Shown here piece by piece: positions 6,995 through 39,580 of a stretch of DNA of 40,000 bases. The stretch comes from Synechococcales cyanobacterium C42_A2020_086. Lineage in GTDB: Bacteria > Cyanobacteriota > Cyanobacteriia > Elainellales > Elainellaceae. The stretch is taken from the NCBI GenBank assembly GCA_015272325.1, contig JACYLU010000028.1:259294-299293 (forward strand), written 5' to 3'. The position numbers and the translations under genes are program-made. Position 1 is the stretch's first letter, and the number at the start of each line of letters is the position of its first letter. The notes under the pieces are model-generated. The model searched no databases, had not been told where the DNA came from, and saw nothing but the letters and a program-made list of their open reading frames with translations.

Positions 6995-7001
6995 GAGACT
7001 C

Positions 7002-15541: not shown

Positions 15542-15589
15542 GGGTCAGTCCTCGCAGGTGTGAATTTTGCGGGAGTAGCGGGAGTATCC

Positions 15590-16059: not shown

Positions 16060-16127
16060 TGAAGTGGAACCGGAAAACTGGACAGGTAGTTAAGCTCTGA
16101 ACCCGCTACTCATGATAGAGGTAGTTC

Positions 16128-16445
16128 ATGGCAAATAAACGCAAACAGTACAGTGCTCAATTCAAAGCTAAAGTTGCCCTTGCCGCGATTCGGGGTGAGA
16201 GAACCGTAGCCGAGTTGGCAAGCCAGTATGAGATTCATCCCACGATGATCAACAACTGGAAACGGCAATTGTAGGAAGGAGCCAGTGATGTCTTTGAGTC
16301 CGGCAATGCTGCTGCCCCAATTCACAACGACCAGCAAGCGCAAATCGATGAACTCTACCGACAAATTGGACAACTCAAGGTGGAACGAGATTTTTTAGCC
16401 AACAGGTCAGCACAGTTGGGCTTGAAGCTCGAAAAGCCCTGGTGA
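16128..16445 (+). pseudogene. IS3 orfA (HTH transposase subunit) with an in-frame TAG
   Basis: MANKRKQYSAQFKAKVALAAIRGERTVAELASQYEIHPTMINNWKRQL, then TAG at 16272-16274. The same frame continues EGASDVFESG...QIDELYRQIGQLKVERDFLA, the leucine-zipper part of orfA. Confidence 0.8.
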
Positions 16446-17296
16446 TGCCTGACCATCCTCACTTGAGTATTGTGCGGCAATGTCAATTGCTCAAGCTTGC
16501 TCGTTCTAGTCTTTACTACCAGGCGAAAGACCCATCGGACGAGGAGTTGACCTTACTGCAATTAATCGACCAGCAATATTTGGAAACCCCGTTTTACGGC
16601 AGTCGGAAGATGACACTCTTCCTCCGAGAGCAGGGCTATCGCATCCATCGCAAACGAACGCAGCGATTAATGCGACAACTCGGGATTGAAGCAATTTATC
16701 CCAAGCCCAAGTTGAGTCAACTGCACCCAGAACACCGAGTCTATCCGTATCTGTTGCGCAATGTGGCAGTGAGTGCAGCAAATCAAGTCTGGTCTACTGA
16801 TATCCCTTATCTGCCTGTGCTCAAAGGTCATTTTTATCTGGTTGCCATTATGGACTGGTACAGTCGGAAGGTTCTCAGTTGGCGCATCTCCAACACACTG
16901 GAGGTTGACTTTTGCCTGGATGCACTCCGAGCTGCATTATCAGACTATGGCACCCCAGAGATCTTCAACAGTGACCAGGGCAGTCAGTTCACCTCTCATG
17001 CTTTCACAGATGGTCTCCATGCCTCTGGGGTACAAATCAGTATGGATGGCAGAGGGCGTTGTCATGACAACATTTTCATTGAGCGGTTGTGGCGATCGTG
17101 CTCCGCACGGTTCGGAGAACCATCGATCAAGTATGAGTTGATTTATTTGAAAGCATTTGAGGATGGGAAACATTTGAATCGGGAGGTGAATTACTGGTTT
17201 GAGTGGTATAACCAAGAGAGATTTCATCGAGCATTGGAGTACAAAACACCGAATCAGGTGTATTATGAAGATAACTGTATTGTGAATGAAAGCTAG
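16442..17296 (+). CDS. IS3 orfB (DDE integrase-like catalytic subunit)
   Basis: VWSTDIPYLPV...YLVAIMDWYSRKVLSW...FNSDQGSQFTS...HDNIFIERLWRS is an rve-type DDE core. An apparent ~10-aa insertion (CSARFGEPSI) interrupts the conserved ERLWRS-KYE block. Confidence 0.8.
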   Translation: MMPDHPHLSIVRQCQLLKLARSSLYYQAKDPSDEELTLLQLIDQQYLETPFYGSRKMTLFLREQGYRIHRKRTQRLMRQLGIEAIYPKPKLSQLHPEHRVYPYLLRNVAVSAANQVWSTDIPYLPVLKGHFYLVAIMDWYSRKVLSWRISNTLEVDFCLDALRAALSDYGTPEIFNSDQGSQFTSHAFTDGLHASGVQISMDGRGRCHDNIFIERLWRSCSARFGEPSIKYELIYLKAFEDGKHLNREVNYWFEWYNQERFHRALEYKTPNQVYYEDNCIVNES

Positions 17297-19885: not shown

Positions 19886-20394
19886 AACAGTTGAACCGCC
19901 TGGTCAAAATGCTGGATGCAGTGCTGGCGAAGCTGAGCGATGCTCCGCTCATCATGGCAGTAGTTGTACAACTCAATGTTTTGGTTTACACCACCATCGG
20001 TTAGGTTCAGGGAACCGTCAAGGGCACCGTAGTGGCCAACGTAGGCTTTCGTATGTAGAGCGGATAGGACACGAACCTGGATTCGATCGCTGCGTTTTGC
20101 AAGCTGTCTCAGCGCAGAATGATAATCGGAGTCATCTCCAACAGTAATAAAAATGCTCCCACCATTTGCTGAAATTTGGTGAAGAATATCAAACAAATGA
20201 AGGGAATCTTGTTTGGTTTCAACGACCTCCTGAAAAGAAACATAGTAGGGATTTGCGAGTCGAAAGTTAGTGACCCAGGGAGCAACAATCCAAAACTCAA
20301 AGTGATCGCCTAGCTGTGAGGCAAGCACTTCATTCAGCAGAAAGTTGTAAATCATCGCCTGACCACTGCGTTGTAGGGTTGATCGCTTCGCCAT
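19882..20394 (-). CDS. PLD-superfamily (HKD-type) nuclease-like protein
   Basis: A single PLD-like motif, LHTKAYVGHYGALDGSLNLTDGG (H-x-K ... GS-x-N). The size and N-terminal WIVAPW strand are typical of NucT/DrmC-type nucleases. The ATG at 20394 follows GAGG by 8 nt. The upstream ATG at 20433 would overlap the helicase gene by 29 nt. Confidence 0.65.
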   Translation of the reverse strand: MAKRSTLQRSGQAMIYNFLLNEVLASQLGDHFEFWIVAPWVTNFRLANPYYVSFQEVVETKQDSLHLFDILHQISANGGSIFITVGDDSDYHSALRQLAKRSDRIQVRVLSALHTKAYVGHYGALDGSLNLTDGGVNQNIELYNYCHDERSIAQLRQHCIQHFDQAVQLL

Positions 20395-20404
20395 AGAATA
20401 GACC

Positions 20405-23400
20405 TCACTCAATAGGACGGATCGTAATTTCAATTGCAGGAGATTGGCTGACTGTCAGGTCAGTCGGATAGACGGTCTGAATGTCAGTAATCATGGGATA
20501 GATCATCCCTAAGTCTGTATCAATGCCAGCATCTGTTAGATAACTGATTGTGGTACAAAGCGAAGAGAGCCGATCGCTGGGTACTCGTAAGTAAATCGCT
20601 TGATATCCTTTCTCTAGAAGATGTCTGATTTGTTCACCTATGGATGTTATGGCTGTGTCATCATTTTCACCCTCTAGCGTCAGTGTCTGGCTAGCATGGG
20701 CCTGGGTTAACCATTCAGTAAGAAGTGGACGATTCAGCAAATTTCGGCTTAGTCCAGGCGCTTCAATGTCTCCACTGCGCTCATCCAGGCAGTTTGGGCA
20801 GCTACATCGACAAGTCATTAACATGCGGCGCTCTATTGCTGATTCAAATGCGCGGCGGACTTCATTTTCTGCTGTACCATACTCAATTCTGTAGAGTTGG
20901 AGGAGGCGAGCCAGTTCTGGGTAAGGAAGTGCTTGGTCTGAGAGGTTTAGAGAACTTGCTACAGTGCGGTAGAGAATTGATTTTGCCTCTGTGAATGAGG
21001 GGTCGCGACCAAACTGCTGAGTGCAGGAGGGCAGAAAGTCTTGGTTAATTTCTCTAAAGATGCGCCAGTTTATTAGACGGTTGCCATCAACTTGTTGAGT
21101 GTAGTCAGGAATAAAGACTCTCAGCAAAGCCTTAAGCTGCTTTTGTTGCACAATAACTTGTAACTGCTTGCGAACTGCTACGAGCAAACCCTCAATGGCT
21201 ATCTGGCGATCGCTAGAACTGCGAGCTTGGATCACAGCATTCACAAGTGCCTCGCAGTGGGCTAACCAATCTTGGGGTTGAGCCAGTAAATATCGAAGGA
21301 ATGCTTCCTCCTGAGCAGTTGGACAACGGGTCATGCGATGCGCCAATGTTGTCCAAAAGCGATCTGGGTTCTTCCGCAAAAGATCTTGGGTTGCACGCAT
21401 GACGCCAATACCACCCATACCAATTTCATACAGCCAGATAGGTTTAATGACTTCATTGCCAAAGTCGATTCGTAATCTAGTCCATGCTGAAACATAGTTC
21501 AATGCTTCAACTCCAGCTATTTCTTGAGCTACCTGCTTTAATGCTACGGTCAAACTATATTGAAAGGTGTCTTGTAGATAGTCTTGGTACAGGGCACCCT
21601 CCGATCTGAACTCCTCGTAAAGATCTAAAAAAATTGATAAGTAGTCATTTGGGCTAGCAACCAATTGCATGACCGCCTCAGTTTTCTTCGGTGATAATTG
21701 ATGAATTTGGTTAACTGATTGAGTGAACTGACGGTTGAATTCGTTGTTACCTGCTACCAGCCAATTTCGTAAACCATCTGGTGTCCCTGCCTGCTCATGG
21801 CACCAGTTATCAGCAAGAGACAAAAGAACATTCACTAAATTTTCAGCGGCAAAATAGCTTTCTCCAGACTCAACAGTCAGGTTAGTGATAAAGGCATGCC
21901 GAACTGCATTATTGCGAAGGGTAGCTTTTGTGGAAGGCGAGAATATAGAGGTTGATAGGGCATCAGGATTGAGGTTGATGCTGATTCCCTCAGTGATAAG
22001 TTGATAGCCTAAGGCACAATTAGTGTTGGCATCTTCATCAGCAGTAAAACCAACAACCTGTCTAATATCCTCTGCTTTAGCTTCATGAAACTTAAGTGTG
22101 TATTGGCTGCCAAGTATGATACGACGAACATCCAGGAGATTCAAATTGTCAGGCTCATCACTGTAGAGCACAATATCCTGGACTAAATTCTGCCCGAGAC
22201 TGTCACAAGCGACTGGTTGATCGGTTGGTTTGAAGGTGTATTTAGACGTAGCAACATCACGGATTGGTCGGATATAAACTGCACTAATAGACTGGGCTGA
22301 GCACGAGTGAGCCAGTTGATACATATCCTGTGGTGCATCCTCAGTTCTACGACACTCTCGAAGTTCACCTGTATCAGGCTTGCAATACCAGAATGACGAA
22401 TTGTAGTCACGACTGAATTGCTGAGGTTCAATTTGAGTAGGGCGATAGAGGGTTAGAAATTTATCACTACGAGGAGTGATGCCAACTAACTTAAGCGCAC
22501 GTTTTGGTAGATTAACCGTGCTAGGGCTGTTCTCAATCCGATCTTTTGATGTGTAGTATCGACTGAGAGGAATCAGCGATTGCCCATCTGGAGTGACAGG
22601 GGGTATCCATGTTGAGCCTTCCCCACCGCGAAAGGTTACATTTCCCGGTATGGTTTCACTGATTGCTAGACTGATGCTTTCCGGATCAAGGCGCTTATCA
22701 AAGCGACGATCGTCAGGGCGATAATCTACACGCACCTCTGGTAAATTGATGTCTGAGAACAAGTTTTCTGGCAAGTGCTGCGTGAGCATCGGACGGGCTT
22801 TAACCGTTTGCTCGTTCTCACGATCAAACTTTGGATGCACAGCCTTCATGAGTCCCTCGAAAAAGATGCTCCAGAGAAACCCATCTGAATCCACATCTCC
22901 CAATACACGTATTAATGTATTGCTATCTGCGATCGCGAACGATTCCTTCAAGTAGTCCTTGAACTTGAGCATCATATTCATATTGACTGTCTGGTTCAGC
23001 AAATACTGATAGCCCTGACGCGATAGCTTTTCTAAATCGAGTTCTATCCCTACAAGGTGTGCTTGATATGTCAACCAGTCAAACAGCGCATAGAAGCCGT
23101 GAATTCTTTGGAGGTAGCGGTTTTGGGCATTAAGAGGAAGTTTTTGGAAGGTCGGGTCTGTCAAGAGATGCTCATTCCGAAACAAAAATAAGTCGGTCGG
23201 CTTATAAGGACTGAGCACAGTAACGACAATCGGTCGGGTGCCCACTTTACGCCCTCCTCTTCCCTTACGTTGAACAAAGCTGGCGATATTTGCGGGGGCA
23301 GTATATTGAATGACGCACATCAGTGCCTCATCATCGTATCCAACCTCTAAAGCACTGGTGGTAATGACAAGGTCATCATCATCTTCAATAACAACAGAGC

Positions 23401-25375
23401 GATCGCTCCCTGATTTACGCTTAATATTCAATGGTTCTTGACGAGCTTTTCCTTTCTGGCTCAGTACCCACCAGCATTCCCCCGCCTGAAAAAGTGGGCA
23501 GTTTGGGTTCGGAGTTTGGGTTCGTTCACAGTTACAGTTGTACTGCGTCGTAGGTCCAAAGAAATTAGGAAAGAGTTGACGATTAAGGGGAGGATAACGA
23601 TAGGCATACAGAGGAACATATCTAATTGGATAGGTATCGTCCGTAGGACGAACTCCCTGTCCCTTCAACTCTTGACGCCTTTCAGCTTGGTAGTCTTTGA
23701 CCTTTTCAGCATCTTGCATCTGATACAGCCAGCGACCAACGATATCTAATGACTGCACAAATCCAAAGGTACGGTAGCGCTTCAAATCACCATCTGTTGC
23801 TGGTTGCGGCATCGTATGCAGCACACACATTGCTGTTTGGATTAAGGATGAAAGAACAGCAGTATCCTCAGTATCTTCAGCGCGAGCGAAGATAAAGCGC
23901 TCTGCCCCAATAATCTGCATCTCATGATCTTGGGGCTTTACCTCTTCAATCCGAACTGGGTCAATGCCGGAAAGTTCCGACAGAAATTGTTTAGGATGGG
24001 CGATCGTGGCACTAAGACCAACAAAGGCAAGGTTGGCTGGTTCCTCGCGATCGCGCTTGCCCATCCGAATTCTTGCCAGTAATCGCCGCAGTAATAGGGC
24101 GACTTGGGTACCAGACGTGGAAGTCTGCAAGTGAATTTCATCCAGCATTACTACAGAGGGAGCACAGAAGGTTGCATTCCCAAACAGGTATTGGTATTCC
24201 GAAGAGATTAACCGTCGATGGAGGGATTCTGTTGTTGCGATGAGAAGGTCAGGTGGTTCCTTCTTCATCACATCACGGGCAAATTTGATAAAGGGGTAGG
24301 CTTTACTGCACTCCGGACACACCAATAGTTCAGGCTGTGTTGGGCGCGAAAGCAACCGTTGAGGCTTCGTATCACAGCTATGCCCCTCTGTGCCGACACA
24401 ATAAGCGAAAGGAGACAAATAGCCCTGATGCTCTTCGCTGAACGTCCAACCTCGTTGCTTAGCTAGTTTTTTCTGCTGAGATTCATCGATCTTTTGAAAG
24501 TCTTTAATTTGGTAAACGGCTGCACCACTTTCCACGCCAATTGTAATGGCGGGGAGGTTATTGGCAACCAGCACCTGGTTCAGGTGATATAGAACCTCAA
24601 TAAAATCGGTGAGTTGATTTTCTGAAAGTGCGACCCGTGGGTAAATACAAATTGCTTTAACTCCGACACGTTGCCGAAGACAGCGCTCCAGCACCATCTT
24701 AGCTAACACCGGAAGGAAGAATGCATAGGTTTTTCCGGCACCTGTGCTGGCTGTGACTACCACTCCTCGTTCGATACTCTGCTGCGGCTCTAGTTCGATC
24801 GCCTGCAAAATGGCCCTCAAAGTACGGCGTTGGAAGCCGCTCATCTGTTGGAGTTTGGTCAGGGTCTGCTCAATCACCGTTAGCAGGAGGTCGGCAGTTT
24901 GTTGCTGTTCTGAATTACCAGCAAGCAATGGCCCCATGCAGGTTCGGACAGGAATGTTACGGCGTGGAACCCGGCGAGAGGCAACGCTAAACTTCACATC
25001 CTCAATCAACCGCTTACTTTTGCTAATCCGATGAGCAGCTTTACCAGGATTGTGGTTGACAATACGTTGGCGAAGTTTAGTCAAAAGTCGGACTGTTTCT
25101 GCAACTCGGCTACGAAAAACCCAGTTTTCTGGCAATTCTTCCTGATCAAACCGAATGATTTGCAAATTAATAGCAAGTTGTTCTAGAGCCTGGGTAATTG
25201 CTGAGGTTCTTGCTTCTGGTGGTAACTGAATATCATCTGAGGGTTGAAAGCTCCGAATGACTTCACTTCCTGTCAAGGTTAAGTCGTAAATGCCATAAGC
25301 AATTTGCTCAGCCTCACGCTGCTCAATAAAGGTCAAGACTTCATCGGCTAGATGCTTGATAGTTTCAGAATTCAC
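20405..25375 (-). CDS. giant superfamily-2 DEAH-type helicase with a C-terminal DUF1998 (MrfA-type) Cys cluster; DrmA/DpdE-like
   Basis: 1656 aa with a GTG start. Walker A is ASTGAGKT (24728-24751), motif II is DEIH (24131-24142) and motif VI is QRKGRGGR. The CRCSCPNC cluster sits at 20789-20812. Two further Cys4 inserts lie inside the helicase core. Confidence 0.8.
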   Translation of the reverse strand: MNSETIKHLADEVLTFIEQREAEQIAYGIYDLTLTGSEVIRSFQPSDDIQLPPEARTSAITQALEQLAINLQIIRFDQEELPENWVFRSRVAETVRLLTKLRQRIVNHNPGKAAHRISKSKRLIEDVKFSVASRRVPRRNIPVRTCMGPLLAGNSEQQQTADLLLTVIEQTLTKLQQMSGFQRRTLRAILQAIELEPQQSIERGVVVTASTGAGKTYAFFLPVLAKMVLERCLRQRVGVKAICIYPRVALSENQLTDFIEVLYHLNQVLVANNLPAITIGVESGAAVYQIKDFQKIDESQQKKLAKQRGWTFSEEHQGYLSPFAYCVGTEGHSCDTKPQRLLSRPTQPELLVCPECSKAYPFIKFARDVMKKEPPDLLIATTESLHRRLISSEYQYLFGNATFCAPSVVMLDEIHLQTSTSGTQVALLLRRLLARIRMGKRDREEPANLAFVGLSATIAHPKQFLSELSGIDPVRIEEVKPQDHEMQIIGAERFIFARAEDTEDTAVLSSLIQTAMCVLHTMPQPATDGDLKRYRTFGFVQSLDIVGRWLYQMQDAEKVKDYQAERRQELKGQGVRPTDDTYPIRYVPLYAYRYPPLNRQLFPNFFGPTTQYNCNCERTQTPNPNCPLFQAGECWWVLSQKGKARQEPLNIKRKSGSDRSVVIEDDDDLVITTSALEVGYDDEALMCVIQYTAPANIASFVQRKGRGGRKVGTRPIVVTVLSPYKPTDLFLFRNEHLLTDPTFQKLPLNAQNRYLQRIHGFYALFDWLTYQAHLVGIELDLEKLSRQGYQYLLNQTVNMNMMLKFKDYLKESFAIADSNTLIRVLGDVDSDGFLWSIFFEGLMKAVHPKFDRENEQTVKARPMLTQHLPENLFSDINLPEVRVDYRPDDRRFDKRLDPESISLAISETIPGNVTFRGGEGSTWIPPVTPDGQSLIPLSRYYTSKDRIENSPSTVNLPKRALKLVGITPRSDKFLTLYRPTQIEPQQFSRDYNSSFWYCKPDTGELRECRRTEDAPQDMYQLAHSCSAQSISAVYIRPIRDVATSKYTFKPTDQPVACDSLGQNLVQDIVLYSDEPDNLNLLDVRRIILGSQYTLKFHEAKAEDIRQVVGFTADEDANTNCALGYQLITEGISINLNPDALSTSIFSPSTKATLRNNAVRHAFITNLTVESGESYFAAENLVNVLLSLADNWCHEQAGTPDGLRNWLVAGNNEFNRQFTQSVNQIHQLSPKKTEAVMQLVASPNDYLSIFLDLYEEFRSEGALYQDYLQDTFQYSLTVALKQVAQEIAGVEALNYVSAWTRLRIDFGNEVIKPIWLYEIGMGGIGVMRATQDLLRKNPDRFWTTLAHRMTRCPTAQEEAFLRYLLAQPQDWLAHCEALVNAVIQARSSSDRQIAIEGLLVAVRKQLQVIVQQKQLKALLRVFIPDYTQQVDGNRLINWRIFREINQDFLPSCTQQFGRDPSFTEAKSILYRTVASSLNLSDQALPYPELARLLQLYRIEYGTAENEVRRAFESAIERRMLMTCRCSCPNCLDERSGDIEAPGLSRNLLNRPLLTEWLTQAHASQTLTLEGENDDTAITSIGEQIRHLLEKGYQAIYLRVPSDRLSSLCTTISYLTDAGIDTDLGMIYPMITDIQTVYPTDLTVSQSPAIEITIRPIE

Positions 25376-25408
25376 AGGTAGAGCCTTTTGAGAAAGAGCA
25401 TTATGAGT

Positions 25409-27205
25409 TCACGCATCACTGACCAACTCAGCATCGTAACCTTCTAGAAAATCTGCAAGTCGCTTGTTTGCGTCAGGAGTGTGAATAGGAATGGGCACAG
25501 CCTCCACACCTGTAGCGTCATAGCTCACTAACAACCAATCTCCTTTCTTAAATTTGAAAGTTTGACGAAACATTTCGTCACCTAAACCAAACGCATCTCG
25601 AATTCGTTCTCGATCGGACTTACGTGGCAACTTAGAAATGAAATAGGTGTGAGGTTGAGCTAGGATACTGGTATTTAGATAAGTAATCCGTTGCGTTGCA
25701 ATTCCAATCCCCAAGCCAAACTTCCGACCTCGACGAGCTAACGTCATAGCAATGTCTGTGGAATTTTTATAGCTACCTGATTCTTGTTGGGGAATAAATT
25801 CATCAGCTTCATCAAATACAAAGCTAACAAGAGGACTAATTAAACCCTGGCTACGGCGCTCTTCATAGGCTGCGTCTCCTAACCAACTGCTGAAATCCCT
25901 AAGTTCATCAGGGTTATGGGCTTGAATGATAAATAAATTCTTCGTTTCTTTTTTGTTAAGTTGTTCAACCATCCAAGAAATGTTAACTCGTGCTTCCTGA
26001 GGAAGAGGGGGATTACGGGAAAAGTCTTTAACAGCAGCAGATAGTTTACTCTGTAAGTTTTCTAAACTCTTCTTACCGTTAGCACCCTTTATGTCCTGGA
26101 TACTCGCAGCAATTTTCTCTAAGGCTCCTTGGGCAACCTCCACTGAGAATTTGGTCTCAATTCCACCTAATTCCTGGATTAAGGGGTCAAGCTTTTTCTC
26201 ATCATCACCAGCAATCTTCCCTGATTTAGATTCCTGCCACAGCTCCAAAATTAACGAACCTAAGCTTTTATCAGCACTAACACGTTGGTAAACTTTAATT
26301 TTGCCATCCGTCAGCAATTGTCGATAAATAGGGGTTAGGGACTTGCTATATTTCCTGAGTGCTTTGGGGAGAAGGGCTGTTTTTGCCATTGCTTCCGCCG
26401 CTGCATCTAGCTTACTTTTGTCACCTGCGAGAAATTGTCCCACTTCTCCAGGAAAAGTTTGGGACCCTAGACCAATAAGGTAGGCTCCTGGATGTTGTAC
26501 AAGCAAATCCAGAACCAACGTTGCATACTCACTCATTAAATCAAAGAAGACAAAATTAGTTGGTTCTTTGCTCTCTTGATAAAGCTTAGAAACTAGCGTA
26601 GATAGCAAATTGGATTTTCCAGCCCCCGTAAAACCAAAAATGCCAAAGTGAACTTGCAACAGTTCATCAGCAAGAGCATAAACTTCAATATTCGGTTCTC
26701 GGATGAGGTTGCCAACTACAATCACGTTATTGTAGTTTGGATCAAGTTCTCTGTTGAGAATTTTACGAGTTAAATCGTTATCAATTGGGTATATATCTGC
26801 TCCTGTCATTGGCAAATTCGATTCTTCTAAAATCTGATTATTTTCGTCTACTTCTAAATTAGTAGGGATGGCGAGAACTCGAATCTGAGTGGTATCTTCT
26901 CGAACTTCATCTTCCTGATCACGCCAATCTGTGAATGCACTTTTAGCAGCTTCCTTAACAAAACCAGGATAGCCACTAGCATTTTCTCCAAGCCCATAGT
27001 GAACAGGCAGTAAGGAAACTACTTCCAGAATGTTGTACCGATAGCCATCACGATTACTGGAAAAGTTAGGGACTGCCAGTAAAGCTCCTTCCCGAATTTT
27101 TTCCATATTTTTGCGAGTGTATTCAAACCAAATTTCGCATTGGTAGCGACTCTGCTCATCTTCCTGGAGACTAATTAATGTGCCTTTGATGTTAGTAATA
27201 AACAT
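25409..27205 (-). CDS. HerA-like (DUF87, FtsK/HerA-clade) ATPase
   Basis: 598 aa with an N-terminal barrel-like domain. Walker A is GIFGFTGAGKSNLLS and Walker B is VSFVFDEADEF, followed by GLGIGIATQR. AAGGA lies 8 nt before the ATG. Confidence 0.75.
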   Translation of the reverse strand: MFITNIKGTLISLQEDEQSRYQCEIWFEYTRKNMEKIREGALLAVPNFSSNRDGYRYNILEVVSLLPVHYGLGENASGYPGFVKEAAKSAFTDWRDQEDEVREDTTQIRVLAIPTNLEVDENNQILEESNLPMTGADIYPIDNDLTRKILNRELDPNYNNVIVVGNLIREPNIEVYALADELLQVHFGIFGFTGAGKSNLLSTLVSKLYQESKEPTNFVFFDLMSEYATLVLDLLVQHPGAYLIGLGSQTFPGEVGQFLAGDKSKLDAAAEAMAKTALLPKALRKYSKSLTPIYRQLLTDGKIKVYQRVSADKSLGSLILELWQESKSGKIAGDDEKKLDPLIQELGGIETKFSVEVAQGALEKIAASIQDIKGANGKKSLENLQSKLSAAVKDFSRNPPLPQEARVNISWMVEQLNKKETKNLFIIQAHNPDELRDFSSWLGDAAYEERRSQGLISPLVSFVFDEADEFIPQQESGSYKNSTDIAMTLARRGRKFGLGIGIATQRITYLNTSILAQPHTYFISKLPRKSDRERIRDAFGLGDEMFRQTFKFKKGDWLLVSYDATGVEAVPIPIHTPDANKRLADFLEGYDAELVSDA

Positions 27206-27214
27206 GGTTAGTCC

Positions 27215-29035
27215 TTATCGCTTGGCGCTGTCACGAATACTGCGGAATGTACGAGCAAGAGGATTTGAGCGGAGCATATAGTCAACACTCCGCATCATGT
27301 CAGCTAAACGGCGACCGACTGTTTTAGCTCCCCAATCAGCTTTATGTAATGGGTCAGGGTAACCAATTACTTCAGCAAAGTGATTGCGACAGAGTTCACT
27401 GAGCAAGTACATTACCAACGACTGTCCAATATTCCCTTCCGTAGCATCGGATCGAAAGTAAGGATTGACCTTACCCAGCGTCGAAGTTTGAATTTTGTCA
27501 GATAAGACAGCAGTTTTATCCCAACGAGGGTAGAGCAGACGTTCGACAAAAATTACATGCCCCATTAAAGGACCAGAAGGCTTATTTTGTAGGAAAAATT
27601 GCCCTAATGATCTTGCTGTTAACCGTTCGGGAGCCAAAATATCTCCCCGCACACCACTTAGAGTTCGAGTATTATTATCTTCCTGCTGCACAAACAGAGT
27701 CATGAAGACACTATCAAACTCTACGGTGGACCAAGGAGCCTCCAGACTCTCGTTAATTACTGGAAGAAGCTCTAAAGCAATTCGATCAGTGGCAGGTAGA
27801 GGACGATTAAACGAATTCAACTCCGGAAAAACGTTAAGTAGACGCATCACACCCAAATAGTTGCGTGAAAAATACGCGGAAGATGAATCCTTCACCAAGC
27901 CAACAAGCAGCACATTCCGTTTCCAACTCTCCTCGATCAGCAATCGCAATCCAACACCGATCAAAAACTTCAGGTCTGTTGGTCCCATCCATCGCTGTTT
28001 ACGGATTTCGTTGTGTTGAATGTCATAAGTTAAGGCTGTTGAATCTTTGGCAACGAAAAGTCTTTCACAAATAGTTTGAAAAACATCCTTGACGTATGCC
28101 CATGATGCATCAATAGTATTTGCTCCAGTCCATTTCAACTTTGTTCCATCTTGTTCGGCTAATCTTCGTTTAGTTAAGTAATCTACTCCAGGTGCTAGCT
28201 GCTCAATTGTAAGCCCTGCTTCATTGGCTAATTGGGCTAAATCAACTTCACCTCCTTGTTGCTGCATTTTGGCAAGCAGACCTGTATATTGCCGAAAACG
28301 TTTAAGAGTGGGTATACCCAAATCCTTATTAAAAGGATGAGCAAGCGCAACCATTACATCGGCTTCTGTAAGCTGACGTGTACCCCAATCGCTTCCAATC
28401 ATTCGTACAACTCCTGGCTGTACCATATTCGAGGCCATGATCGAGGAAATTGATTGGTCGAGAAGAACCATATTTGGGGCATCTGTACGGCTGCTAGAGA
28501 CTGTGTCATAGGCTAAGTACACCTCTGCAAGTTGCATCAGAAGAGTATGGATACCTGCTAAGCTAACCTTTTCAAAATCGCTAACTGCAAATGGATCTCG
28601 ATTCTCCTCAAGTACGTCTTCCAGTTCTGCATAAGGTATAGGAACTTGTGCAACTACCGAAACATCTTGTTCTAGTGACCATTTGTGGTAGCGCAGTGTG
28701 GGAGGAGTACCTTTTAGATCTAAAGAGCCTTTTGCTCCATAAGCTCCGGCATAGAAGAGCAAGAATTGAGAGGTTTCTTCAGCCTGACATGTTCCATCAA
28801 TAGCAACGAAATGAACCTCGTCACGCCCAAAGAAATCTCGAATCTGATCACGAAGGCGAATTAACTTGGGCTGTGAAGAAAACTCTGTCTTCCAGGCTTT
28901 GACAAGATCTTTAAGTTTGCAATCATACAGTTCCTGAACGACATCAACATGTTGTTCATAAAGAGATTCGCTACGATCTTGCCCAAACCGGAGGCTCTCC
29001 TCAAATCCTCGAAAAATATTTGAGAGCTTAGACAC
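27215..29035 (-). CDS. NurA-like nuclease with an inserted middle domain
   Basis: 606 aa with a GTG start. The NurA-type motif series is HFVAIDGT, MQLAEVY, MVLLDQSISS, LVGLVKDSSS and the C-terminal IGYPDPLHKADW. About 100 aa are inserted between motifs. Confidence 0.65.
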   Translation of the reverse strand: MSKLSNIFRGFEESLRFGQDRSESLYEQHVDVVQELYDCKLKDLVKAWKTEFSSQPKLIRLRDQIRDFFGRDEVHFVAIDGTCQAEETSQFLLFYAGAYGAKGSLDLKGTPPTLRYHKWSLEQDVSVVAQVPIPYAELEDVLEENRDPFAVSDFEKVSLAGIHTLLMQLAEVYLAYDTVSSSRTDAPNMVLLDQSISSIMASNMVQPGVVRMIGSDWGTRQLTEADVMVALAHPFNKDLGIPTLKRFRQYTGLLAKMQQQGGEVDLAQLANEAGLTIEQLAPGVDYLTKRRLAEQDGTKLKWTGANTIDASWAYVKDVFQTICERLFVAKDSTALTYDIQHNEIRKQRWMGPTDLKFLIGVGLRLLIEESWKRNVLLVGLVKDSSSAYFSRNYLGVMRLLNVFPELNSFNRPLPATDRIALELLPVINESLEAPWSTVEFDSVFMTLFVQQEDNNTRTLSGVRGDILAPERLTARSLGQFFLQNKPSGPLMGHVIFVERLLYPRWDKTAVLSDKIQTSTLGKVNPYFRSDATEGNIGQSLVMYLLSELCRNHFAEVIGYPDPLHKADWGAKTVGRRLADMMRSVDYMLRSNPLARTFRSIRDSAKR

Positions 29036-29404: not shown

Positions 29405-30499
29405 ATGGAGCTTGTGCTTCCTGCTGTACCAGTCCAGAGAGGTTCTGAAGGCGATCACATAAGCTATGTGGCTAGCTTTACATTCGGTGACATTACTCGG
29501 TTGTTGGATGATGGACGGTTGTATGTGCCAAACCAACCTGACCTGCCCGACTTCGCTCAGCGGAAACCAAATCCTGTTCGGATTAAGGCGATCGCCCAAT
29601 ACATCCTGGAAACCTACCAGGAAGGCACCACCTTTTTCCCTCCAATTTGTGTCAATGTACAGCCACCGCCGACCTACCGAAATGGCAATGTTTACTTGCC
29701 CTATCACTCTGTAACCCTACGGTTAACCGATGGGCAACACCGTTGTTTTGGAATTCGTCAGGCAATCAAGGATATTCAGGCTCAAGATTTGGTGAACCTG
29801 GGAATTCTTTCGCAACTGGAATTAGGCGCTCTGCTGTATGCTGGGCTGCCACTTGAACTAGAGCGCCAAGCATTCCGAGATCAGAATTTGCTGGCACAGA
29901 GACCCGGCACGTCGTTGTCCCATTTATTTGATAAGCGATCGCCCACCGTATTGATCGCCAAAAACCTGATGGACAGAATCCCTCAGTTTCGCAATAACGT
30001 AGAGACCATTGAGAATGGCTTAGGTAAACATAATCCCAAATTGCTGACCTTATCTACATTGGTGACAGCAACACAACATATGTACCCAGGCTTGCGCTCC
30101 CAAAAAGATTTAGAAGAGCGTACTAATTGGGCCACAGCATTCTGGTGTGCTGCTGCAAGGGGCTTTTCTGATGATCCTTGGATGTCTAGAACCGCCCAGG
30201 ATCGTAACCGCCAACGAGAGCAGTCGTTAGCGGTTAGTGCTGTGGTCTTTCAGGCATTGGGACTGTTGGCGCGAGATCTCTACCTGGAGGGAGTTCCAGG
30301 TGAAGATCTGGATAAATGGCTAGTGAGACTAGGAGAGATGGATTGGCGGCGGGAAAATAATTTCTGGTTAGAACGAGGAGTTACCCAGGTTGGGGCGCAG
30401 GGAACCCCTATTTTGTCCAACACCCGAACCACGGTTGATGCGTGCCATCGAGTTCTGCGGGAATTCGTTGGTATTATCCCCACTGCTTTAAGCGTTTAG
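29405..30499 (+). CDS. DGQHR-domain protein (DndB/DpdB family, ParB/Srx-like fold)
   Basis: The literal DGQHR motif is in context (VTLRLTDGQHRCFGIRQAI). The length (364 aa) and the upstream F.PPI.VN block are typical of DndB-like proteins. Confidence 0.8.
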   Translation: MELVLPAVPVQRGSEGDHISYVASFTFGDITRLLDDGRLYVPNQPDLPDFAQRKPNPVRIKAIAQYILETYQEGTTFFPPICVNVQPPPTYRNGNVYLPYHSVTLRLTDGQHRCFGIRQAIKDIQAQDLVNLGILSQLELGALLYAGLPLELERQAFRDQNLLAQRPGTSLSHLFDKRSPTVLIAKNLMDRIPQFRNNVETIENGLGKHNPKLLTLSTLVTATQHMYPGLRSQKDLEERTNWATAFWCAAARGFSDDPWMSRTAQDRNRQREQSLAVSAVVFQALGLLARDLYLEGVPGEDLDKWLVRLGEMDWRRENNFWLERGVTQVGAQGTPILSNTRTTVDACHRVLREFVGIIPTALSV

Positions 30500-31720: not shown

Positions 31721-32602
31721 TCAGCCTGCCACAGTTTGGGGAATGGGTGGTTCTACAACTTCCTGTAAGGCGTTTCGATGTCCAAACCGTTGGTAGTCGT
31801 AGCGAGCATCCCACCAGAGCCAGTTGGTTGAATCTGCCCAGACGTTATGCTTTTTAAGTACTTCAAGGCGAGTGAGAGCCAGTCCTCCCAGTACGAAGTC
31901 GGGACGGCTCCAAGTGAGGAGATCGTCGAGTTGCTCATTAGAAAGCCCAAATTTTAAGCCGGTTGGCATCGTGGGATCTGACTTGAGCAGACCACCAAGG
32001 GCAATGTATTGGTAGCCGATGTTGCGATATTCACTGATGAGCGATGATAAAAAGCTTCGAGGGGAGTTGTAGTGAGGAGGCAGTGCGTCTTTCTGAGGAA
32101 TGGGTTGACGATTTTGCCAGTTATAGAGAGCATCACCCACCTGCACCACTCCAATCAGCTTGAATTCTCTAGGTCTCTGAGAGTATTCCTGCCATGCCAG
32201 ACGTGCTAAATGTAAAGATAGTAAAGGTTCACCGACTATATCTGGTGCAAAGAGAAAACTGGGTGTAAATTCATCACAACGGTTAATAATTCCTCGGATT
32301 TTTTGAATTAGCTTATCCTTATTGGCTAATACTGGTTCCCTAAACCAACGATCATTCTCAAACTTGCAGTCAGGCTGTTTATACCAAGAACACTTGAACT
32401 GGTAATAGGAAGGTGCAACATACTCTTCAAATACACCGCTATCAAGGAAATAAGTTTTCCCCAAATCTTGAAGAATCTTTAAGAAATTGTCAGATTCGAG
32501 AGCAGTTGCCAGGATGCCATATTCACCGTTTAAGTTGTCTTGCAACTTTTTTAGTAAATTAAGGCGGTTGACAGCAAATACAGGTAGGAACGTGTTCTCC
32601 AT
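31721..32602 (-). CDS. short TGT-superfamily protein (second DpdA-like paralogue, no zinc motif)
   Basis: 293 aa. FLDSGVF parallels TGT DSGGF. YQYIALGGLLKSD parallels GYAIGGLSVGE. VWADSTNWLWW parallels the second catalytic Asp strand. No CxCxxC motif is present. Confidence 0.65.
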   Translation of the reverse strand: MENTFLPVFAVNRLNLLKKLQDNLNGEYGILATALESDNFLKILQDLGKTYFLDSGVFEEYVAPSYYQFKCSWYKQPDCKFENDRWFREPVLANKDKLIQKIRGIINRCDEFTPSFLFAPDIVGEPLLSLHLARLAWQEYSQRPREFKLIGVVQVGDALYNWQNRQPIPQKDALPPHYNSPRSFLSSLISEYRNIGYQYIALGGLLKSDPTMPTGLKFGLSNEQLDDLLTWSRPDFVLGGLALTRLEVLKKHNVWADSTNWLWWDARYDYQRFGHRNALQEVVEPPIPQTVAG

Positions 32603-32731
32603 GCCACCAGCACAGTTAAAAGGTTAAGCTTATAAAAATTTAACTCTTCTAAGAAACCGTTCCTTGATTTTGTAATCAAAATCACACGATTTCAAACCTC
32701 ATGATAATTGGGGATCCAAAAGCAAAGACAA
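32603..32731. promoter_or_regulatory. divergent control region with a perfect 8-bp inverted repeat
   Basis: TGATTTTG-TAAT-CAAAATCA lies at 32665-32684. An AT-rich TATAAA element lies nearby. The region sits between the short dpdA-like operon (-) and the PD-(D/E)xK gene (+). Confidence 0.35.
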
Positions 32732-33859
32732 ATGTCAGAATCCGTTGATAAATTACAAGAAGCAGAAGTCGTGTTCTGGCTTAAACAAGCCCTTAGAGAT
32801 AAAGATCTGAAAGGACGTCTGGTTAAAGACATTTTGGTTGATGCTGATCCAAGCTATTTACGCTCAAAGTTCCGACGGCATCTTGAGCCTACAGGAACAA
32901 TTTGGATTAGCGATAGACGACCGGATCTTGTTTGCAATCTGGTAGATAATAGCACAGAATTACTAGTCGCATTTGAAGTTAAAGCTCATTCCGATCATGA
33001 GAAAGGAATTGTGCAAGCAAGTCGTTATCGATATGGAGTGCATGAGTCATACCTTTGTATCCCCACGAATAGTGGTAAAACCCCAAAGTGGTTGCGGGAT
33101 GCTGCCGCAAAAAATGGAGTTGGATTAATTCGTGTTTCCAATAATGATTATGAGCTTGAAATAGAGCCTGAATATCCTCTTCCTGACCCTAAGATCCTGC
33201 TGATTACACAGCGTTATCTATTAGGAGAAAAAAGTGCTCGTTCTCTTTGTATGAATAGGCCATTGCACTATGCAGCAGCTTTAATCGCATTCACATATGA
33301 GGAAAGCCCTAAAGAAGCATTAATTAATCAATGGGGTATCAAAGGTTCATCAATTAAGCATTCAATCAGTGGTGCAGAAACACTTGGATTACTCATGGCT
33401 GATGGACAGGCAACTATCAAAGGCAGAGCTTATGCTGAAATATTGAAGCTCCTCGGCTTTGATTTTTCTCATTCAAGGTATCTCACGAAATCAAGGCGGC
33501 GTTTAGCCAAAGACGCACCAGGCTTTGCAGCAGTTTTGCGCTCTATCCTTTTGGATCATCCTGTTGTCGATCTTATTATTCATGTCTTAGCGGATGCTGG
33601 TGGTACTCCAATTTCAGCAGATAAATTAGCAGAGAAGGCTTCTCTTATAGATGAAGGCATGGCACGTGCAGCATTTGGTATGCCTCCAATTCTAGGAGAA
33701 ACATGGCAAATAAAAAGTTTTACACGCTTTAATCTTAAAGCGGCAATGTATGATGTTGGACTGCTCGATTCACCTCTTTCAGAACAAACAAATTATGATC
33801 CTAAAAATGATCTTTGGCAGCTAAGAACTATATGTGGCATACCAGATCTTTCGAGTTAA
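32732..33859 (+). CDS. PD-(D/E)xK nuclease-fold protein with a long uncharacterised C-terminal region
   Basis: RRPDLVCNLV...ELLVAFEVKAHSD...QASRY fits the D...(D/E)xK...Q restriction-endonuclease-like core. The ATG at 32732 is preferred to the TTG at 32708. The 3' end overlaps the convergent dpdA-like gene by 32 nt. Confidence 0.5.
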   Translation: MSESVDKLQEAEVVFWLKQALRDKDLKGRLVKDILVDADPSYLRSKFRRHLEPTGTIWISDRRPDLVCNLVDNSTELLVAFEVKAHSDHEKGIVQASRYRYGVHESYLCIPTNSGKTPKWLRDAAAKNGVGLIRVSNNDYELEIEPEYPLPDPKILLITQRYLLGEKSARSLCMNRPLHYAAALIAFTYEESPKEALINQWGIKGSSIKHSISGAETLGLLMADGQATIKGRAYAEILKLLGFDFSHSRYLTKSRRRLAKDAPGFAAVLRSILLDHPVVDLIIHVLADAGGTPISADKLAEKASLIDEGMARAAFGMPPILGETWQIKSFTRFNLKAAMYDVGLLDSPLSEQTNYDPKNDLWQLRTICGIPDLSS

Positions 33860-35921
33860 GTTGAGGTGCTGAAGTACAGCTTATTTGATATAAAAGCTCT
33901 TTGAATCGGTTGTAAAATGTGTAGGTATTGTGAAAACCACGCCTGCGATTTCGATCATTATTTCTAAATAGAACAACTTCAATCCCTATCTCTTTGCAAA
34001 CTGAGCAGCCACATGAATTCCACGGTTTTTCTTGTAGCAGTTCTCGGTAAGGATTTTCAAACTTTGCCTGGTATTTTGATAATGCTTCAGGGCTAGATTG
34101 CTCTTCCTGAGATTCTACTAGCATGCTGTAAGCTGCAACTGACTCTAAAACTGCTTCCAAAGCTAGTTTACCTAAATCAAATTGCCTTAGAGCATTCAAA
34201 GCCTCTTGTTCGTACCTCTTAAAAGTTTCCAAATCAACAGAGCTATTTTCAAGAGCACGCTTCACTTTCAACCCTCGCTCAGTTGGTGGCACTCTAATAG
34301 CCTTAAAAAATCTTCCTGAAGAAGTATGGTAGTTCTTTGTGTCAGATAACCATGCTTGCCTCAGTGGACTCGCCGAGTCAAAACTTGTGACTCCCAAATG
34401 CCGAAATACTGGAATTGCCTCAATTCGAGCAACCCCAAACAAATGCAACCGCACATGTGGTTTGAGATGAGGATAAATTGCCTTCAGGATTGGCACAATC
34501 TCCTTCGTTTGTGCACGAGCTAATCCACCTAGTGCCACATAGTCATATCCCATGCCAATTACTTCTTTCACGGCATTAGCATAGGACTCTGGGTTCCACC
34601 CTTGAGCCACACCCATTGGAGTAAACGTGTATCCTAATTCTCGATGCTTCTGGATAAAGTCTTCAGCATTTTTCAGTGTAATTTCATACCGTTTTTCCCG
34701 TTCGCCTGGTTGAGCAAAGGGACCTACAATCAGGTGGTCAATACTCACCCCATAGTTAAATCCCAAATTTTCGTAATACTCTAAAATTTCGTCAGTATTG
34801 TATGGAGGCACTTCTTCCTTGATGTAACCAAATGCTCCACAATCTCCCATGATTCGCCCTGGGAACCGGATGAACTCGTGGATTCCACCTGCTGCTTCCA
34901 CCCGTGCTCGTTTTGTTTTGCTCTCATCAACTACGACTTTAGAAACTAAAATTCCGTCGTAATTCGGCGAGGGATAAATCTCGTGTGCATAGATGTCATT
35001 GTAGGGATCTCGACCTGGCGTGAGAGTATCGGTGAGGAAGTCATAGTTTGGATCTACGCGATCGTCCCACTCTGGAATGTAATATTGCATTCCCAAGTGA
35101 ACATTAGGTGCTGGCGGGCAGGGAGGGATGGCTAAATAGTCCTCTGCTGGGGGCTTAATGACTTGTTTAGACGCCTTTTTAGCCGCAGAGACAGACACCC
35201 CCATTGACAACTCTAACTGGGTCTCCTGCTGGTCGATCAATTCTTGAAAGACGGTCGGCTCCTCATAAACCGCTTTTAATAATTCAGCGTCCTTACAGAC
35301 TGCCTCCGCAAATCGTTTGAACAGAAACCCCTTTAACCCAACCAATCCATAGCGATAACGTTTTGCATCAGCATTTGATAACGGCAATATAAACGTCTTC
35401 GCTGCTAAAGTCCTGATAAATCGAGTACTACTGTTAGATGCCAAAAATACTAACGTCTGATCAGGTCTGGTTTCGACAGGCAGTGTCAGCGATCGCAGAT
35501 AGTTCTCTCCCAGCAATAAGAAAATAAGGTCATAAGGGGCGATCGCTTTCTCAAATGCATCGTGCAATCCGAGCGATCGTGCCCAACCATCCACCTCATG
35601 CCCCTTCATGCCGTTGAAGGTGACCTCGTAGGGGACAATCAACCTGTCCTCTTCAATCAACCCATACCCCGCCGATAGGATACTGAGATCCACAGCATTT
35701 TGTCCCAATGCACCACGCCATTGCAGCACCCCTTCCATCAGTTGGAGATGCTGCATCCCGGTATACATCGCTCCAGCAGTGGTAGAGAAATCAGCTAATT
35801 CAGCTTCCCGTTTCTGTAGGCGATCGGCATTCTTAAAGTCTGCCAAGACCAGTTGATTCTCGGGTTTAGACTGCTTCTCCCCAGTGCAGGACGTAATAAC
35901 TAAGACACGGGGATAAGGCAT
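33828..35921 (-). CDS. dpdA: DpdA-like DNA/tRNA-guanine transglycosylase-family protein fused to an N-terminal ~250-aa domain
   Basis: 697 aa. The C-terminal ~400 aa carry the TGT motifs [22 protein letters not shown] and [15 protein letters not shown]. The TGT zinc motif CGCSVC (33996-34013) is followed by a His 22 residues later. The N-terminal [12 protein letters not shown]...ILSAGYGLI...VPYEVTF recalls DUF6884-type domains. Confidence 0.8.
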
Positions 35922-38202: not shown

Positions 38203-39580
38203 CCTCTTTCATCACATTAGGGGAGAATAATTAAACTGAAAGAGTGACTCTACCAAACTACTCCAGTTATGGTTGAACCTCGTGAGGCTTGTCCTACCCT
38301 CCGTTTTGTTGACGAGTATTGTGACTGGTATGCTCCTCTATTTCCAGAGGTGAGAAGCTTCGAAGCCTTCAAATATTTGCATGTGGGCATGATTTCAGAC
38401 CTCAAACGCAAAACATTACCTGCCATCGCTCGCACTGTCGGATTAGACAATGAACAAGGATGACATCATCTATTAACTAAATCTCCCTGGTCAGTGGCTC
38501 GATTGCGGCAAACTCGACTGAAACGGATTTTGCAATTGGTCAATGGGCAACGGATAATCTTGTTGATTGACGAAACCGGAGATTGCAAGAAGGGCAATCA
38601 TACTGATTACGTCAAACGACAATACATCGGTAACGTGGGCAAGCAGGAAAATGGCATTGTTGCGGTCACTGCTTATGGGCTGTTCCAGGGCATGATTTTG
38701 CCATTGTGCTTTGAAGTCTACAAACCCAAAGACCGACTCAAAGCAGAAGATGAATACCACACTAAACCAGAAATTGCCGCAGCAATGATTCGGGAATTAA
38801 CCGCAATGGGATTTCGCCTTGAACTGGTACTGGCAGACAGTCTCTATGGCAAGAGTCTCAGTGTCTTAGAGTCGCACCAGTTGCCTTACATCGTAGCGAT
38901 TCGCTCGAATCACGGGGTGTGGATGCCCCAAGACCAGGAGATGACCCACCAGCCGTGGCAAGCGTTTACTCGTACTTTCAGCAATGGGGAAACCGAAGTG
39001 CGTTATCGCCAGGAGGTTATCTTTGGTAGTCGTCGCAGCCGTCGCTATTGGTTGTTGACGACTGACCCAGAAACCTTACCCGATAACTCAACGGTGTATG
39101 TGATGAGCAATGCTCCTGAGGTGAAACTGGATGAGATTGGCGATGCTTATGGCGAGAGAACTTGGATTGAGTATGGACTCAAGCAGAGCAAGGATGCGTT
39201 AGGGTGGGCAGACTTTCGAGTCACTGACTACAAGCAGATTGAGCGCTGGTGGGAAATTGTCATGAGTGCATTCACAATGGTGAGTTTGTTTGCTGATGCG
39301 TTCAACCAGGAATGTCCCCTATCGCATCAAGTATTTGCTCGACATCCGTGGTGGAACCATCAGAGGGGGTGGAAGAATCTACTGAACAATTTGCGTCTGG
39401 TCATTGAACCGTGGATTAGCTTCAACCGATTGAAACGATGGTTAGAGGTGTTTGAAATTCCAGACTTAGCACGAGGATTTTCCCAATTGATTGAGCAGAT
39501 GCAACAGTTTTACTGTCCGGTTGTTCACGATCTATTCCTGCGTCGCATCTTATTTAACTCTGCTTAAATGATGAAAGAGG
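38203..39580 (+). mobile_element. IS701/IS4-like insertion sequence, probably inactive
   Basis: Terminal inverted repeats are CCTCTTTCATCA at 38203-38214 and its complement TGATGAAAGAGG at 39569-39580. A single DDE transposase frame lies between them. No clear target duplication is visible. Confidence 0.7.
38269..39567 (+). pseudogene. IS701-family DDE transposase interrupted by an in-frame TGA
   Basis: ...TLPAIARTVGLDNEQG, then TGA at 38461-38463, then HHLLTKSPWSVARLRQ...LLIDETGDCKKG...LADSLYG...VAIRSNHGVW in the same frame. This is the conserved IS701 transposase order. Confidence 0.75.

Follow-up and report, generated by a model that had tools for sequence, protein, structure and literature searches.

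Within a 40,000-nucleotide stretch of the genome of Synechococcales cyanobacterium C42_A2020_086 (contig JACYLU010000028.1, positions 259,294 to 299,293; hereafter the window, in whose coordinates all positions are given), a single gene on the minus strand (33828..35921) encodes a DUF6884/DpdC-like domain, a tether, and a DpdA domain in one polypeptide. Judging from the sequence, we consider it probable that this natural DpdC-DpdA fusion is a bifunctional writer, which would first insert 7-cyano-7-deazaguanine (preQ0) into DNA and then hydrate it, leaving dADG (2'-deoxy-7-amido-7-deazaguanosine). An earlier sequence-only reading of the window had described the gene as a DpdA-like transglycosylase with an extra N-terminal domain and had suggested that this domain might supply a DpdC-like function; that function is the best-supported reading, given the homology of the core, the invariant residues shared with DpdC, and the absence of any other dpdC nearby.

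DpdA, DpdB, and DpdC have been described as separate proteins (e.g., PMC10164549, PMC5699537). We found no description of the fusion in the literature on DpdA, DpdB, DpdC, or DUF6884, although an earlier mention in the founding PNAS paper of 2016 is not excluded. As far as we have found, two known Dpd enzymes in one polypeptide are common in genomes and undescribed. A precedent exists in Gat-QueC and other 7-deazaguanine fusions, which likewise place consecutive steps of deazaguanine modification in one polypeptide (PMC5699537, PMC10516641). Those fusions, however, join steps in the biosynthesis of a small molecule, whereas here an enzyme that inserts into DNA would be joined to one that edits the inserted base.

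One Reading Frame and Two Domains

The uninterrupted open reading frame (ORF) that had been read at 33828-35921 holds to the nucleotide: it has 697 codons plus a stop codon on the minus strand, gives a product of 697 amino acids, and is delimited by the ORF list together with matches in Pfam, NCBIfam, and PADLOC. Its start codon is sound: alignments with homologs begin at residue 3-5, the start is preceded by a GGAAG element, and there is an overlap of 22 nt with the stop codon of queC. We scanned one genome per GTDB species, in which at least 530 stretches encode a relative, and examined the best 80 loci; 70 of these 80 are fused. The junction is read through in these 70 independent genomic loci and in at least 48 protein clusters (50% level), at 39-84% identity. 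Met278, the counterpart of the start of canonical DpdA, is variable (M, L, I, or P) in the aligned fused family, so there is no conserved internal start.

The tether between the domains (amino acids 235-277; 35091..35219, minus strand) is poorly conserved, variable in length, and predicted to be disordered, according to the alignment and to modelling with AlphaFold2 (AF2). The full-length AF2 model consists of two well-folded halves, with a predicted local distance difference test score (pLDDT) below 50 at residues 235-259 and an overall predicted template modelling score (pTM) of 0.63, and these values argue against a fixed orientation between the halves. Modelled separately with an alignment of 58 homologs, residues 1-241 adopt an independent compact fold (pLDDT 96.7, pTM 0.93). 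In other words, the models describe two autonomous domains joined by a flexible tether of about 40 residues, and the separate first domain, put earlier at about 250 residues, measures about 235.

Could the fusion be an artefact or a recent accident in this genome, with two neighbouring genes joined through misassembly, through a frameshift, or through the loss of a stop codon? At three cyanobacterial loci (L057, L060, and L075), the two halves are overlapping ORFs in different frames, and a relative with 95% identity carries the N-terminal domain alone. The latter, however, is the product of a 3.4-kb deletion inside a visibly decayed island, whereas the same junction is intact in loci from at least nine phyla, and Myxacorys californica (84%), the closest species representative among the best 80 GTDB loci, is also fused. 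We reject this explanation as next to impossible. Two ways in which the fusion might have dissolved had been foreseen in the sequence-only reading, and neither is borne out. A misassigned start that conceals two separate genes disagrees with homologs that align from the first residues and with a junction that is widely read through. An ordinary N-terminal extension of a tRNA-guanine transglycosylase (TGT) is rejected as well, since the DpdA and TGT models begin at residue 278 and the part before them is a separate DUF6884 fold.

The DpdA Half

By sequence, residues 278-676 (33894..35090, minus strand) are a complete DpdA, a DNA-guanine transglycosylase domain composed of a TIM barrel and a zinc subdomain, and are predicted to exchange guanine for preQ0 on DNA. 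The NCBIfam equivalog for DpdA (NF041059) matches amino acids 278-675 over profile positions 1-405 of 406, with 478.4 bits against a cutoff of 200; PADLOC DpdA matches with 427 bits and Pfam TGT with 57.5 bits. Scores such as these, and that of DUF6884 given below, leave no room for chance matches. The crystallised DpdA of Salmonella enterica serovar Montevideo (PDB 7UI4, chain 23-427) aligns only to amino acids 277-676 (E 8e-95), which agrees with the earlier statement that the Salmonella protein is not fused in this way.

The catalytic residues were assigned by mapping the 7UI4 alignment onto the residues named for the Salmonella enzyme, in which Asp95 is the general acid/base, Phe99 stacks on the base, Asp130 recognises the base, Asp256 is the nucleophile, and His181 contacts the base (PMC10164549). 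Their counterparts, all on the minus strand, are Asp360 (for Asp95) and Phe364 (for Phe99) in GDCGAF (34830..34847), Asp395 (for Asp130) in VSIDH (34734..34748), and Asp515 (for Asp256) in SFDSAS (34368..34385), and these four residues are invariant in 23 aligned fused proteins. The zinc site CxCxxC...H (33927..34013, minus strand) is formed by the conserved Cys637, Cys639, and Cys642 in CGCSVC (amino acids 637-642; 33996-34013, where the sequence-only reading had placed it) and by the conserved His664 in RRRGFHN (33927-33947). The full TGT signature that had been read in the C-terminal part is indeed that of a full DpdA. The base-contacting His181 is replaced by Gln440 (VAQGW, amino acids 438-442; 34596-34610) in all 23 aligned fused proteins, a substitution that could bear on base or substrate specificity.

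Like the Salmonella enzyme, this half combines a TIM barrel with three catalytic aspartates, the stacking Phe, the CxCxxC...H zinc site, and an RNRRRGFHN motif, and its gene is associated with genes for preQ0 synthesis and for a DGQHR protein. Unlike the Salmonella enzyme, it is preceded by a 277-residue N-terminal extension (the DpdC-like domain plus the tether), has Gln440 in place of His181, and is accompanied by a DGQHR protein that is of the DndB type and matches no DpdB model.

The DpdC-Like Half

The N-terminal domain (amino acids 1-234; 35220..35921, minus strand) was characterised with Pfam, PADLOC, hhalign, AF2, and Foldseek as a DpdC-like domain with DUF6884 character and a YaaA-like fold. 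Pfam annotation, as had been proposed, finds both TGT and DUF6884 in the protein: the DUF6884 model (PF21818) matches amino acids 74-156 with 34.3 bits against a gathering score of 30, which upholds the resemblance to DUF6884 that had been noted earlier, and Pfam YaaA matches weakly (E 0.009). PADLOC DpdC models match residues 5-106, and between four and six of them match each N-domain variant tried, whether fused, standalone, or archaeal. An NCBIfam scan of the fused protein gave no DpdC match, and a sequence search of the PDB with the N-domain profile returned nothing significant. In Foldseek, the top PDB match is E. coli YaaA (5CAJ; probability 1.00, TM about 0.4, identity 13%), in agreement with the placement of DUF6884 by the Pfam curators.

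As a reference for canonical DpdC, we used the protein from the unfused dpd cluster of the Enterobacter cloacae plasmid pPOL9A, with its N-terminus restored from the reading frame; it scores 470 bits against PADLOC DpdC. A profile of 58 N-domains matches this protein in hhalign with a probability of 97.7% (E 2.2e-12, 181 columns), which places N-domain residues 5-197 on residues 3-222 of the 318 in DpdC. We also aligned 19 sequences together, four of them canonical DpdCs from proteobacteria and the others fused, reverse-order, standalone, or archaeal split forms. Nine residues (C12, K16, A49, Y53, G55, S83, G87, Y98, and Y141) are the same in every sequence, and two more (A84 and G85) are the same in 18. 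Four motifs on the minus strand hold several of these residues: SCTGEK (amino acids 11-16; 35874..35891), the CxxxK motif of DUF6884/DpdC with the candidate catalytic residues Cys12 and Lys16; YTGMQH (53-58; 35748..35765), with the invariant Tyr53 and Gly55; LSAGYG (82-87; 35661..35678), the LSAxxG motif with Ser83, Ala84, Gly85, and Gly87; and PYEVTF (97-102; 35616..35633), with the invariant Tyr98. CxxxK and LSAxxG are the motifs given for DUF6884 by the Pfam curators (PMC11701544). All peptides quoted in the sequence-only reading are present, these four being among those located.

Like canonical DpdC, the domain has the homologous core of about 190 residues, with CxxxK, Y-x-G, SAGxG, (P)Y, and Y141 conserved, and it keeps the same genomic company, dpdA and queCDE. 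Unlike canonical DpdC, it has about 235 amino acids instead of about 310 and is covalently joined to DpdA. Because the canonical C-terminal tail is absent, we class it, on its sequence features, as a DpdC-like DUF6884 core and not as a full-length DpdC ortholog. Its Pfam DUF6884 score of 34.3 bits compares with 17.9-28.9 bits, below the threshold, for canonical DpdCs. The alpha/beta "cantaloupe" fold class is shared with E. coli YaaA (5CAJ, DUF328) and B. subtilis YfjM (DUF6884), and DpdC itself was formerly filed under DUF328/YaaA, the literature assigning it to either DUF328 or DUF6884. Unlike the domain described here, YaaA lacks the context of the Cys/Lys motif and is a standalone stress and DNA-binding protein unrelated to 7-deazaguanine.

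Distribution and Origins of the Fusion

Searched exhaustively with HMMER, a set of 1.84 billion representative proteins gave 1920 matches, of which 150 were listed, 145 of them newly returned. Among these listed matches, 48 of the 145 representatives have both domains, 42 in the order DUF6884-DpdA and six in the reverse order. The 70 fused loci among the best 80 in GTDB extend over at least nine phyla, namely Cyanobacteriota, Bacillota (with Paenibacillus, Bacillus, Brevibacillus, and Desulfosporosinus as carriers), Chloroflexota, Deinococcota, Pseudomonadota, Planctomycetota, Verrucomicrobiota, Acidobacteriota, and Bacteroidota. The sequence-only reading had implied that the fusion is rare, and the phylogenetic survey that it proposed overturns this: the architecture is widespread, with 70 of the 80 loci fused. 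The fusion is an old, recurrent, and successful architecture and is not peculiar to the window.

A separate dpdC does not accompany it. No second DUF6884 gene lies within 10 kb in any of the 70 fused loci, and the 40-kb window has no second stretch with DUF6884/DpdC coding potential, even when HMMER was run with every filter disabled. Two archaeal metagenome-assembled genomes (MAGs) have the pair adjacent but unfused, as divergent genes, and one Chloroflexota MAG has it as overlapping, co-directional genes; standalone DUF6884 relatives also sit in Dpd-type neighbourhoods.

Since both domain orders exist, the fusion arose more than once. A neighbour-joining tree of the DpdA domain also intermixes fused and unfused forms (28 parsimony changes), but it is a distance tree of low resolution, into which truncated metagenomic ORFs may have entered, and we set it aside as evidence on origins; a plural origin is attested more firmly by the two domain orders.

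Plasmids of haloarchaea (Natronococcus, Natronosalvus, Salinigranum, and Haloarcula among them; hits H6-H13 and H16) match both halves, in three or four pieces that are about 35% identical. The genes at these places carry the annotation queuine tRNA-ribosyltransferase, DUF6884, or both, and the partnership of DUF6884 and TGT therefore reaches the Halobacteria.

Proposed Mechanism

In the mechanism that we propose, QueD, QueE, and QueC, probably co-transcribed with the fusion from just upstream of it, would make preQ0. The DpdA domain would then swap guanine in double-stranded DNA for preQ0 by the double displacement of TGT enzymes, with Asp515 as the nucleophile and Asp360 as the acid/base, probably aided by the DGQHR/DndB-family protein encoded at 29405-30499. 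After insertion, the tethered DUF6884 domain would flip out the inserted base and turn its nitrile into the amide by hydration. The absence of the DpdC tail suggests that the DpdA domain now does the DNA targeting, and this domain would probably hold the hydratase where insertion occurs. The mark left in this way would label self DNA for a Dpd-like restriction module composed of a DpdJ-like helicase, a DpdK-like PLD nuclease, and HerA.

Several points weigh against this reading. The writing of dADG by any fused protein is a prediction, and the catalytic role of Cys12 and Lys16 is one that we infer. The similarity between the N-domain and canonical DpdC is remote, at only about 21% identity, and the PADLOC DpdC models cover only profile positions of about 5-115 out of about 310, at 20-50 bits. 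The helical C-terminal tail of canonical DpdC, about 95 residues long, is missing from the fused domain. His58 is kept in the fused family but is Phe or Trp in canonical DpdC, so the substrate or the product could differ. Finally, DUF6884 includes other proposed roles, such as that of B. subtilis YfjM in DNA repair (PMC11701544).

The same divergence in identity, tail, and His58 would also suit an N-domain that is DpdC-like but acts before insertion, converting free preQ0 to the 7-amido-7-deazaguanine (ADG) base and handing it to DpdA, or one that makes a derivative other than the amide. A tether to a transglycosylase suits substrate channelling equally well, phages are proposed to make ADG before insertion by means of a QueC variant (PMC10516641), and a second TGT-fold paralog beside the fusion leaves room for a second substrate or product. 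On the other hand, the sole characterised member of the family, Salmonella DpdC, acts on preQ0 already in DNA, converting preQ0-DNA to ADG-DNA independently of DpdA and DpdB (PMC10164549). In addition, the fold relatives YaaA and YfjM bind DNA, with a flipped nucleotide predicted in the conserved pocket (PMC11701544), and every residue conserved across DpdC-type proteins is retained. We regard these alternatives as unlikely and prefer hydration after insertion.

Partner Genes at Fused Loci

The second TGT-fold paralog in the window is u293 (31721..32602, minus strand), a protein of 293 amino acids that hhalign and the DpdA hidden Markov model (HMM) identify as a remote relative of DpdA. In 21 loci, nearly all of them from cyanobacteria, it is the conserved gene that comes downstream of the fusion at a distance of 17-150 nt, and it has no match in Pfam, NCBIfam, or PADLOC. 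Against the DpdA domain, it gives an hhalign probability of 94.9% (E 4e-8), and the DpdA HMM detects it within the window at E 7e-5; its DSGVF aligns with GDCGAF, and GYQYIALGGL is also matched in DpdA, and the Zn motif is absent. In Bacillota and Chloroflexota, the fusion is accompanied by a second, minimal DpdA of 300-335 amino acids (hhalign 99.9%, E 4e-31; Pfam TGT 55 bits), which keeps the three catalytic Asp residues and the Zn motif and lacks the helical insert. Its distance from the fusion is about 1-5 kb: in Bacillota, it shares the strand of the fusion and lies about 1 kb downstream, and in Chloroflexota, it is on the opposite strand, a few kb upstream. The loci concerned are L042, L044, L045, L047-L052, L059, L063, L073, L074, L077, and L080, and in L078, L079, and L082 the minimal form stands beside an unfused DpdA. 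Two TGT-fold proteins per system make a recurrent pattern that is reminiscent, by analogy, of the eukaryotic QTRT1/QTRT2 pair.

In 19 loci, the majority of them cyanobacterial, a DGQHR/DndB-family gene is conserved in the vicinity of the fusion. In about 50 of the 70 fused loci, no DGQHR/DpdB-type gene lies within 10 kb (HMM; Pfam on 138 representative neighbour ORFs; four partner clusters), whereas dpdB is reported in 92% of dpdA genomes (PMC5699537). For partner clusters 16 and 22 and the u606 protein of the window, no relation to DGQHR proteins could be detected, and none among the three.

This scarcity of DpdB-type genes, together with the DNA binding of YaaA, the nearest solved fold, would accord with an N-domain that serves mainly to bind DNA and flip bases, opening the target site for DpdA in place of the ATP-dependent help given by Salmonella DpdB, with hydration secondary or absent. 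However, the window does encode a DGQHR protein, and it is conserved with the fusion in the 19 loci mentioned above. The invariant Cys/Lys/Tyr/Ser set, shared by the fused proteins and the catalytic canonical DpdC, resembles an active site more than a binding surface. To our knowledge, moreover, phage DpdAs function with neither DpdB nor DUF6884. We judge this explanation to be quite unlikely. It is also doubtful, although conceivable, that in the fused lineages the DUF6884 domain goes beyond finishing the product and belongs to the insertion machinery itself, which would do without DpdB. The domain would then flip or open the target site for the tethered transglycosylase, possibly as a heteromer with the second TGT-fold paralog (u293 here, the minimal DpdA of about 310 amino acids in Bacillota and Chloroflexota) in the manner of QTRT1/QTRT2, and the mark or the site specificity might differ from those in Salmonella.

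The neighbourhoods of the fused loci (L007-L085) are of at least three types. In the cyanobacterial type, u293, a DndB-like gene, and an 88-aa ORF are followed by UvrD-like and PD-(D/E)xK genes or by DpdE/F/G/H-like genes. In the Bacillota type, a YhhQ-like transporter precedes the fusion, after which come a 264-aa ORF, the short DpdA, a 254-aa ORF, and a STAND-like ATPase of about 1045 amino acids. In the third type, found in Proteobacteria, Planctomycetota, and others, the fusion is followed by HerA between two unknowns, one of 405 aa before it and one of 605 aa after it, and then by UvrD-like and PD-(D/E)xK genes. The 264-aa ORF after the Bacillota fusion shows a remote relation to the C-terminal half of the DGQHR/DndB family (hhalign 90.7%, E 1e-6).

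The Probable Operon and the Island in the Window

Upstream of the fusion, NCBIfam identifies queD (37307-37696), queE (36634-37320), and queC (35900-36622), all on the minus strand. These genes and the fusion, which comes last, form a co-directional block whose members overlap or lie 11 nt apart, an arrangement that makes a single operon probable. Among the island ORFs scanned, none was a queF, so preQ0 is likely to be the end product of the biosynthetic genes.

The DGQHR/DndB-family protein is encoded on the plus strand at 29405..30499 (Pfam DndB, 252.9 bits; TIGR03187 DGQHR, 102 bits). It has no match to any DpdB model and no BLAST similarity to the canonical DpdB of the Enterobacter plasmid. 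The DGQHR partner assumed in the sequence-only reading is thus encoded in the island, but it is of the DndB type and has no pairwise similarity to canonical DpdB; we consider it likely to be the DpdB-equivalent partner. Two small ORFs of unassigned family lie between u293 and this gene. The fusion is convergent with u383 (32708..33859, plus strand), a 383-aa ORF without a library match that overlaps the 3' end of the fusion gene by 32 nt. It stands between the fusion and u293 in only about five loci, u293 otherwise following the fusion directly, and is a lineage-specific insertion. By eye, its N-terminus shows a D...E-V-K pattern resembling PD-(D/E)xK nucleases.

Further along, the putative restriction module (17660..29035, minus strand; NCBIfam, Pfam, PADLOC) comprises a 606-aa protein without a family match (27215-29035), a HerA ATPase (25409-27205; PADLOC HerA PDLC01055, 313 bits), a DpdJ-like YprA helicase (20405-25375; 529 bits, below the equivalog cutoff of 800), a DpdK-like PLD nuclease (19882-20433; 78.6 bits, below the equivalog cutoff of 100), and a TPR protein (17660-19885), all on the minus strand. 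The pair of HerA and the 606-aa protein upstream of it recurs in L007, L010, and L023. Proteobacterial-type loci have other HerA partners, of 405 and 605 aa, and in hhalign the 606-aa protein is related to neither (probability < 1%). DpdD, DpdE, DpdF, DpdG, DpdH, and DpdI were not found in the window with NCBIfam or PADLOC. Unlike the canonical Dpd island (dpdA-K), this one has HerA, the 606-aa protein, and the TPR protein in place of DpdD-I, and of the restriction genes only the DpdJ-like and DpdK-like ones are present.

The block at about 17.3-38.4 kb has a GC content of 45.6%, compared with 55.8% in the copper-resistance and transport region to its left (1-16400), and is flanked by an IS3-family transposase at the left edge (16442..17296, plus strand) and an IS701-family transposase at the right edge (38494..39567, plus strand). 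On account of the low GC and the flanking transposases, the block is a mobile Dpd-like island, and the same features fit a recent horizontal acquisition. Neither Rfam nor a tRNA scan gave any match in the window.

The metagenomic relative that carries the N-domain alone has a decayed copy of this island, 95% identical in DNA. Two segments are gone from it: 31724-35090, with the DpdA domain, u383, and u293, and 23483-30540, with the genes for the DGQHR protein, the 606-aa protein, and HerA and with the front part of DpdJ. The first deletion spans exactly from the Met278 codon (35090) to the stop codon of u293 (31724), with its junction at L001:10827-10831 and a microhomology of only about 2 nt (CACTTG|AGATTAAG).

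Annotation of Fused and Canonical DpdC

In the Prokaryotic Genome Annotation Pipeline (PGAP), the fused plasmid genes of Allocoleopsis, Nostoc, Picosynechococcus, and Paenibacillus are named only "tRNA-guanine transglycosylase DpdA". Cultured strains with the fusion on a plasmid include Allocoleopsis franciscana PCC 7113, Nostoc sp. NIES-3756, and Picosynechococcus sp. PCC 73109. Canonical DpdC genes on RefSeq plasmids (L086:11067-11918, L087:4155-4922, L088:4065-4886, and L089:5140-5988) are "hypothetical protein", and in three of these four the annotated start removes the N-terminal CxxxK motif. Because PGAP leaves canonical DpdCs as "hypothetical protein", the NCBI pipeline and NCBIfam apparently contain no DpdC model, and the DpdC half of fused genes would be hidden for the same reason. 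The largest survey, which required a Salmonella-like dpdA plus dpdB, yielded only one island from a cyanobacterium and listed it as having no dpdC.

Implications

The fusion is independent evidence that ties DpdC-type DUF6884 proteins to the function of DpdA, and its existence in both domain orders argues that the two activities act on the same substrate in the same place. It supports the model of insertion followed by hydration, which has so far rested on one reconstitution with Salmonella proteins. It also separates the catalytic core of DpdC from a dispensable C-terminal tail and nominates Cys12, Lys16, Tyr53, Ser83, Tyr98, and Tyr141 for mutagenesis. The functional assignment of DpdC and DUF6884 is sharpened in this way, although a specialist would not be greatly surprised by it. 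That most fused loci have no DpdB-type gene raises the question of whether a bacterial DpdA can work without an ATPase, and a single polypeptide that writes dADG could serve as a handy tool for site-specific DNA labelling. Finally, the PGAP labels amount to an annotation blind spot, and through it and the surveys seeded with Salmonella sequences the spread of dADG-type modification is underestimated, especially in Cyanobacteriota and Bacillota.

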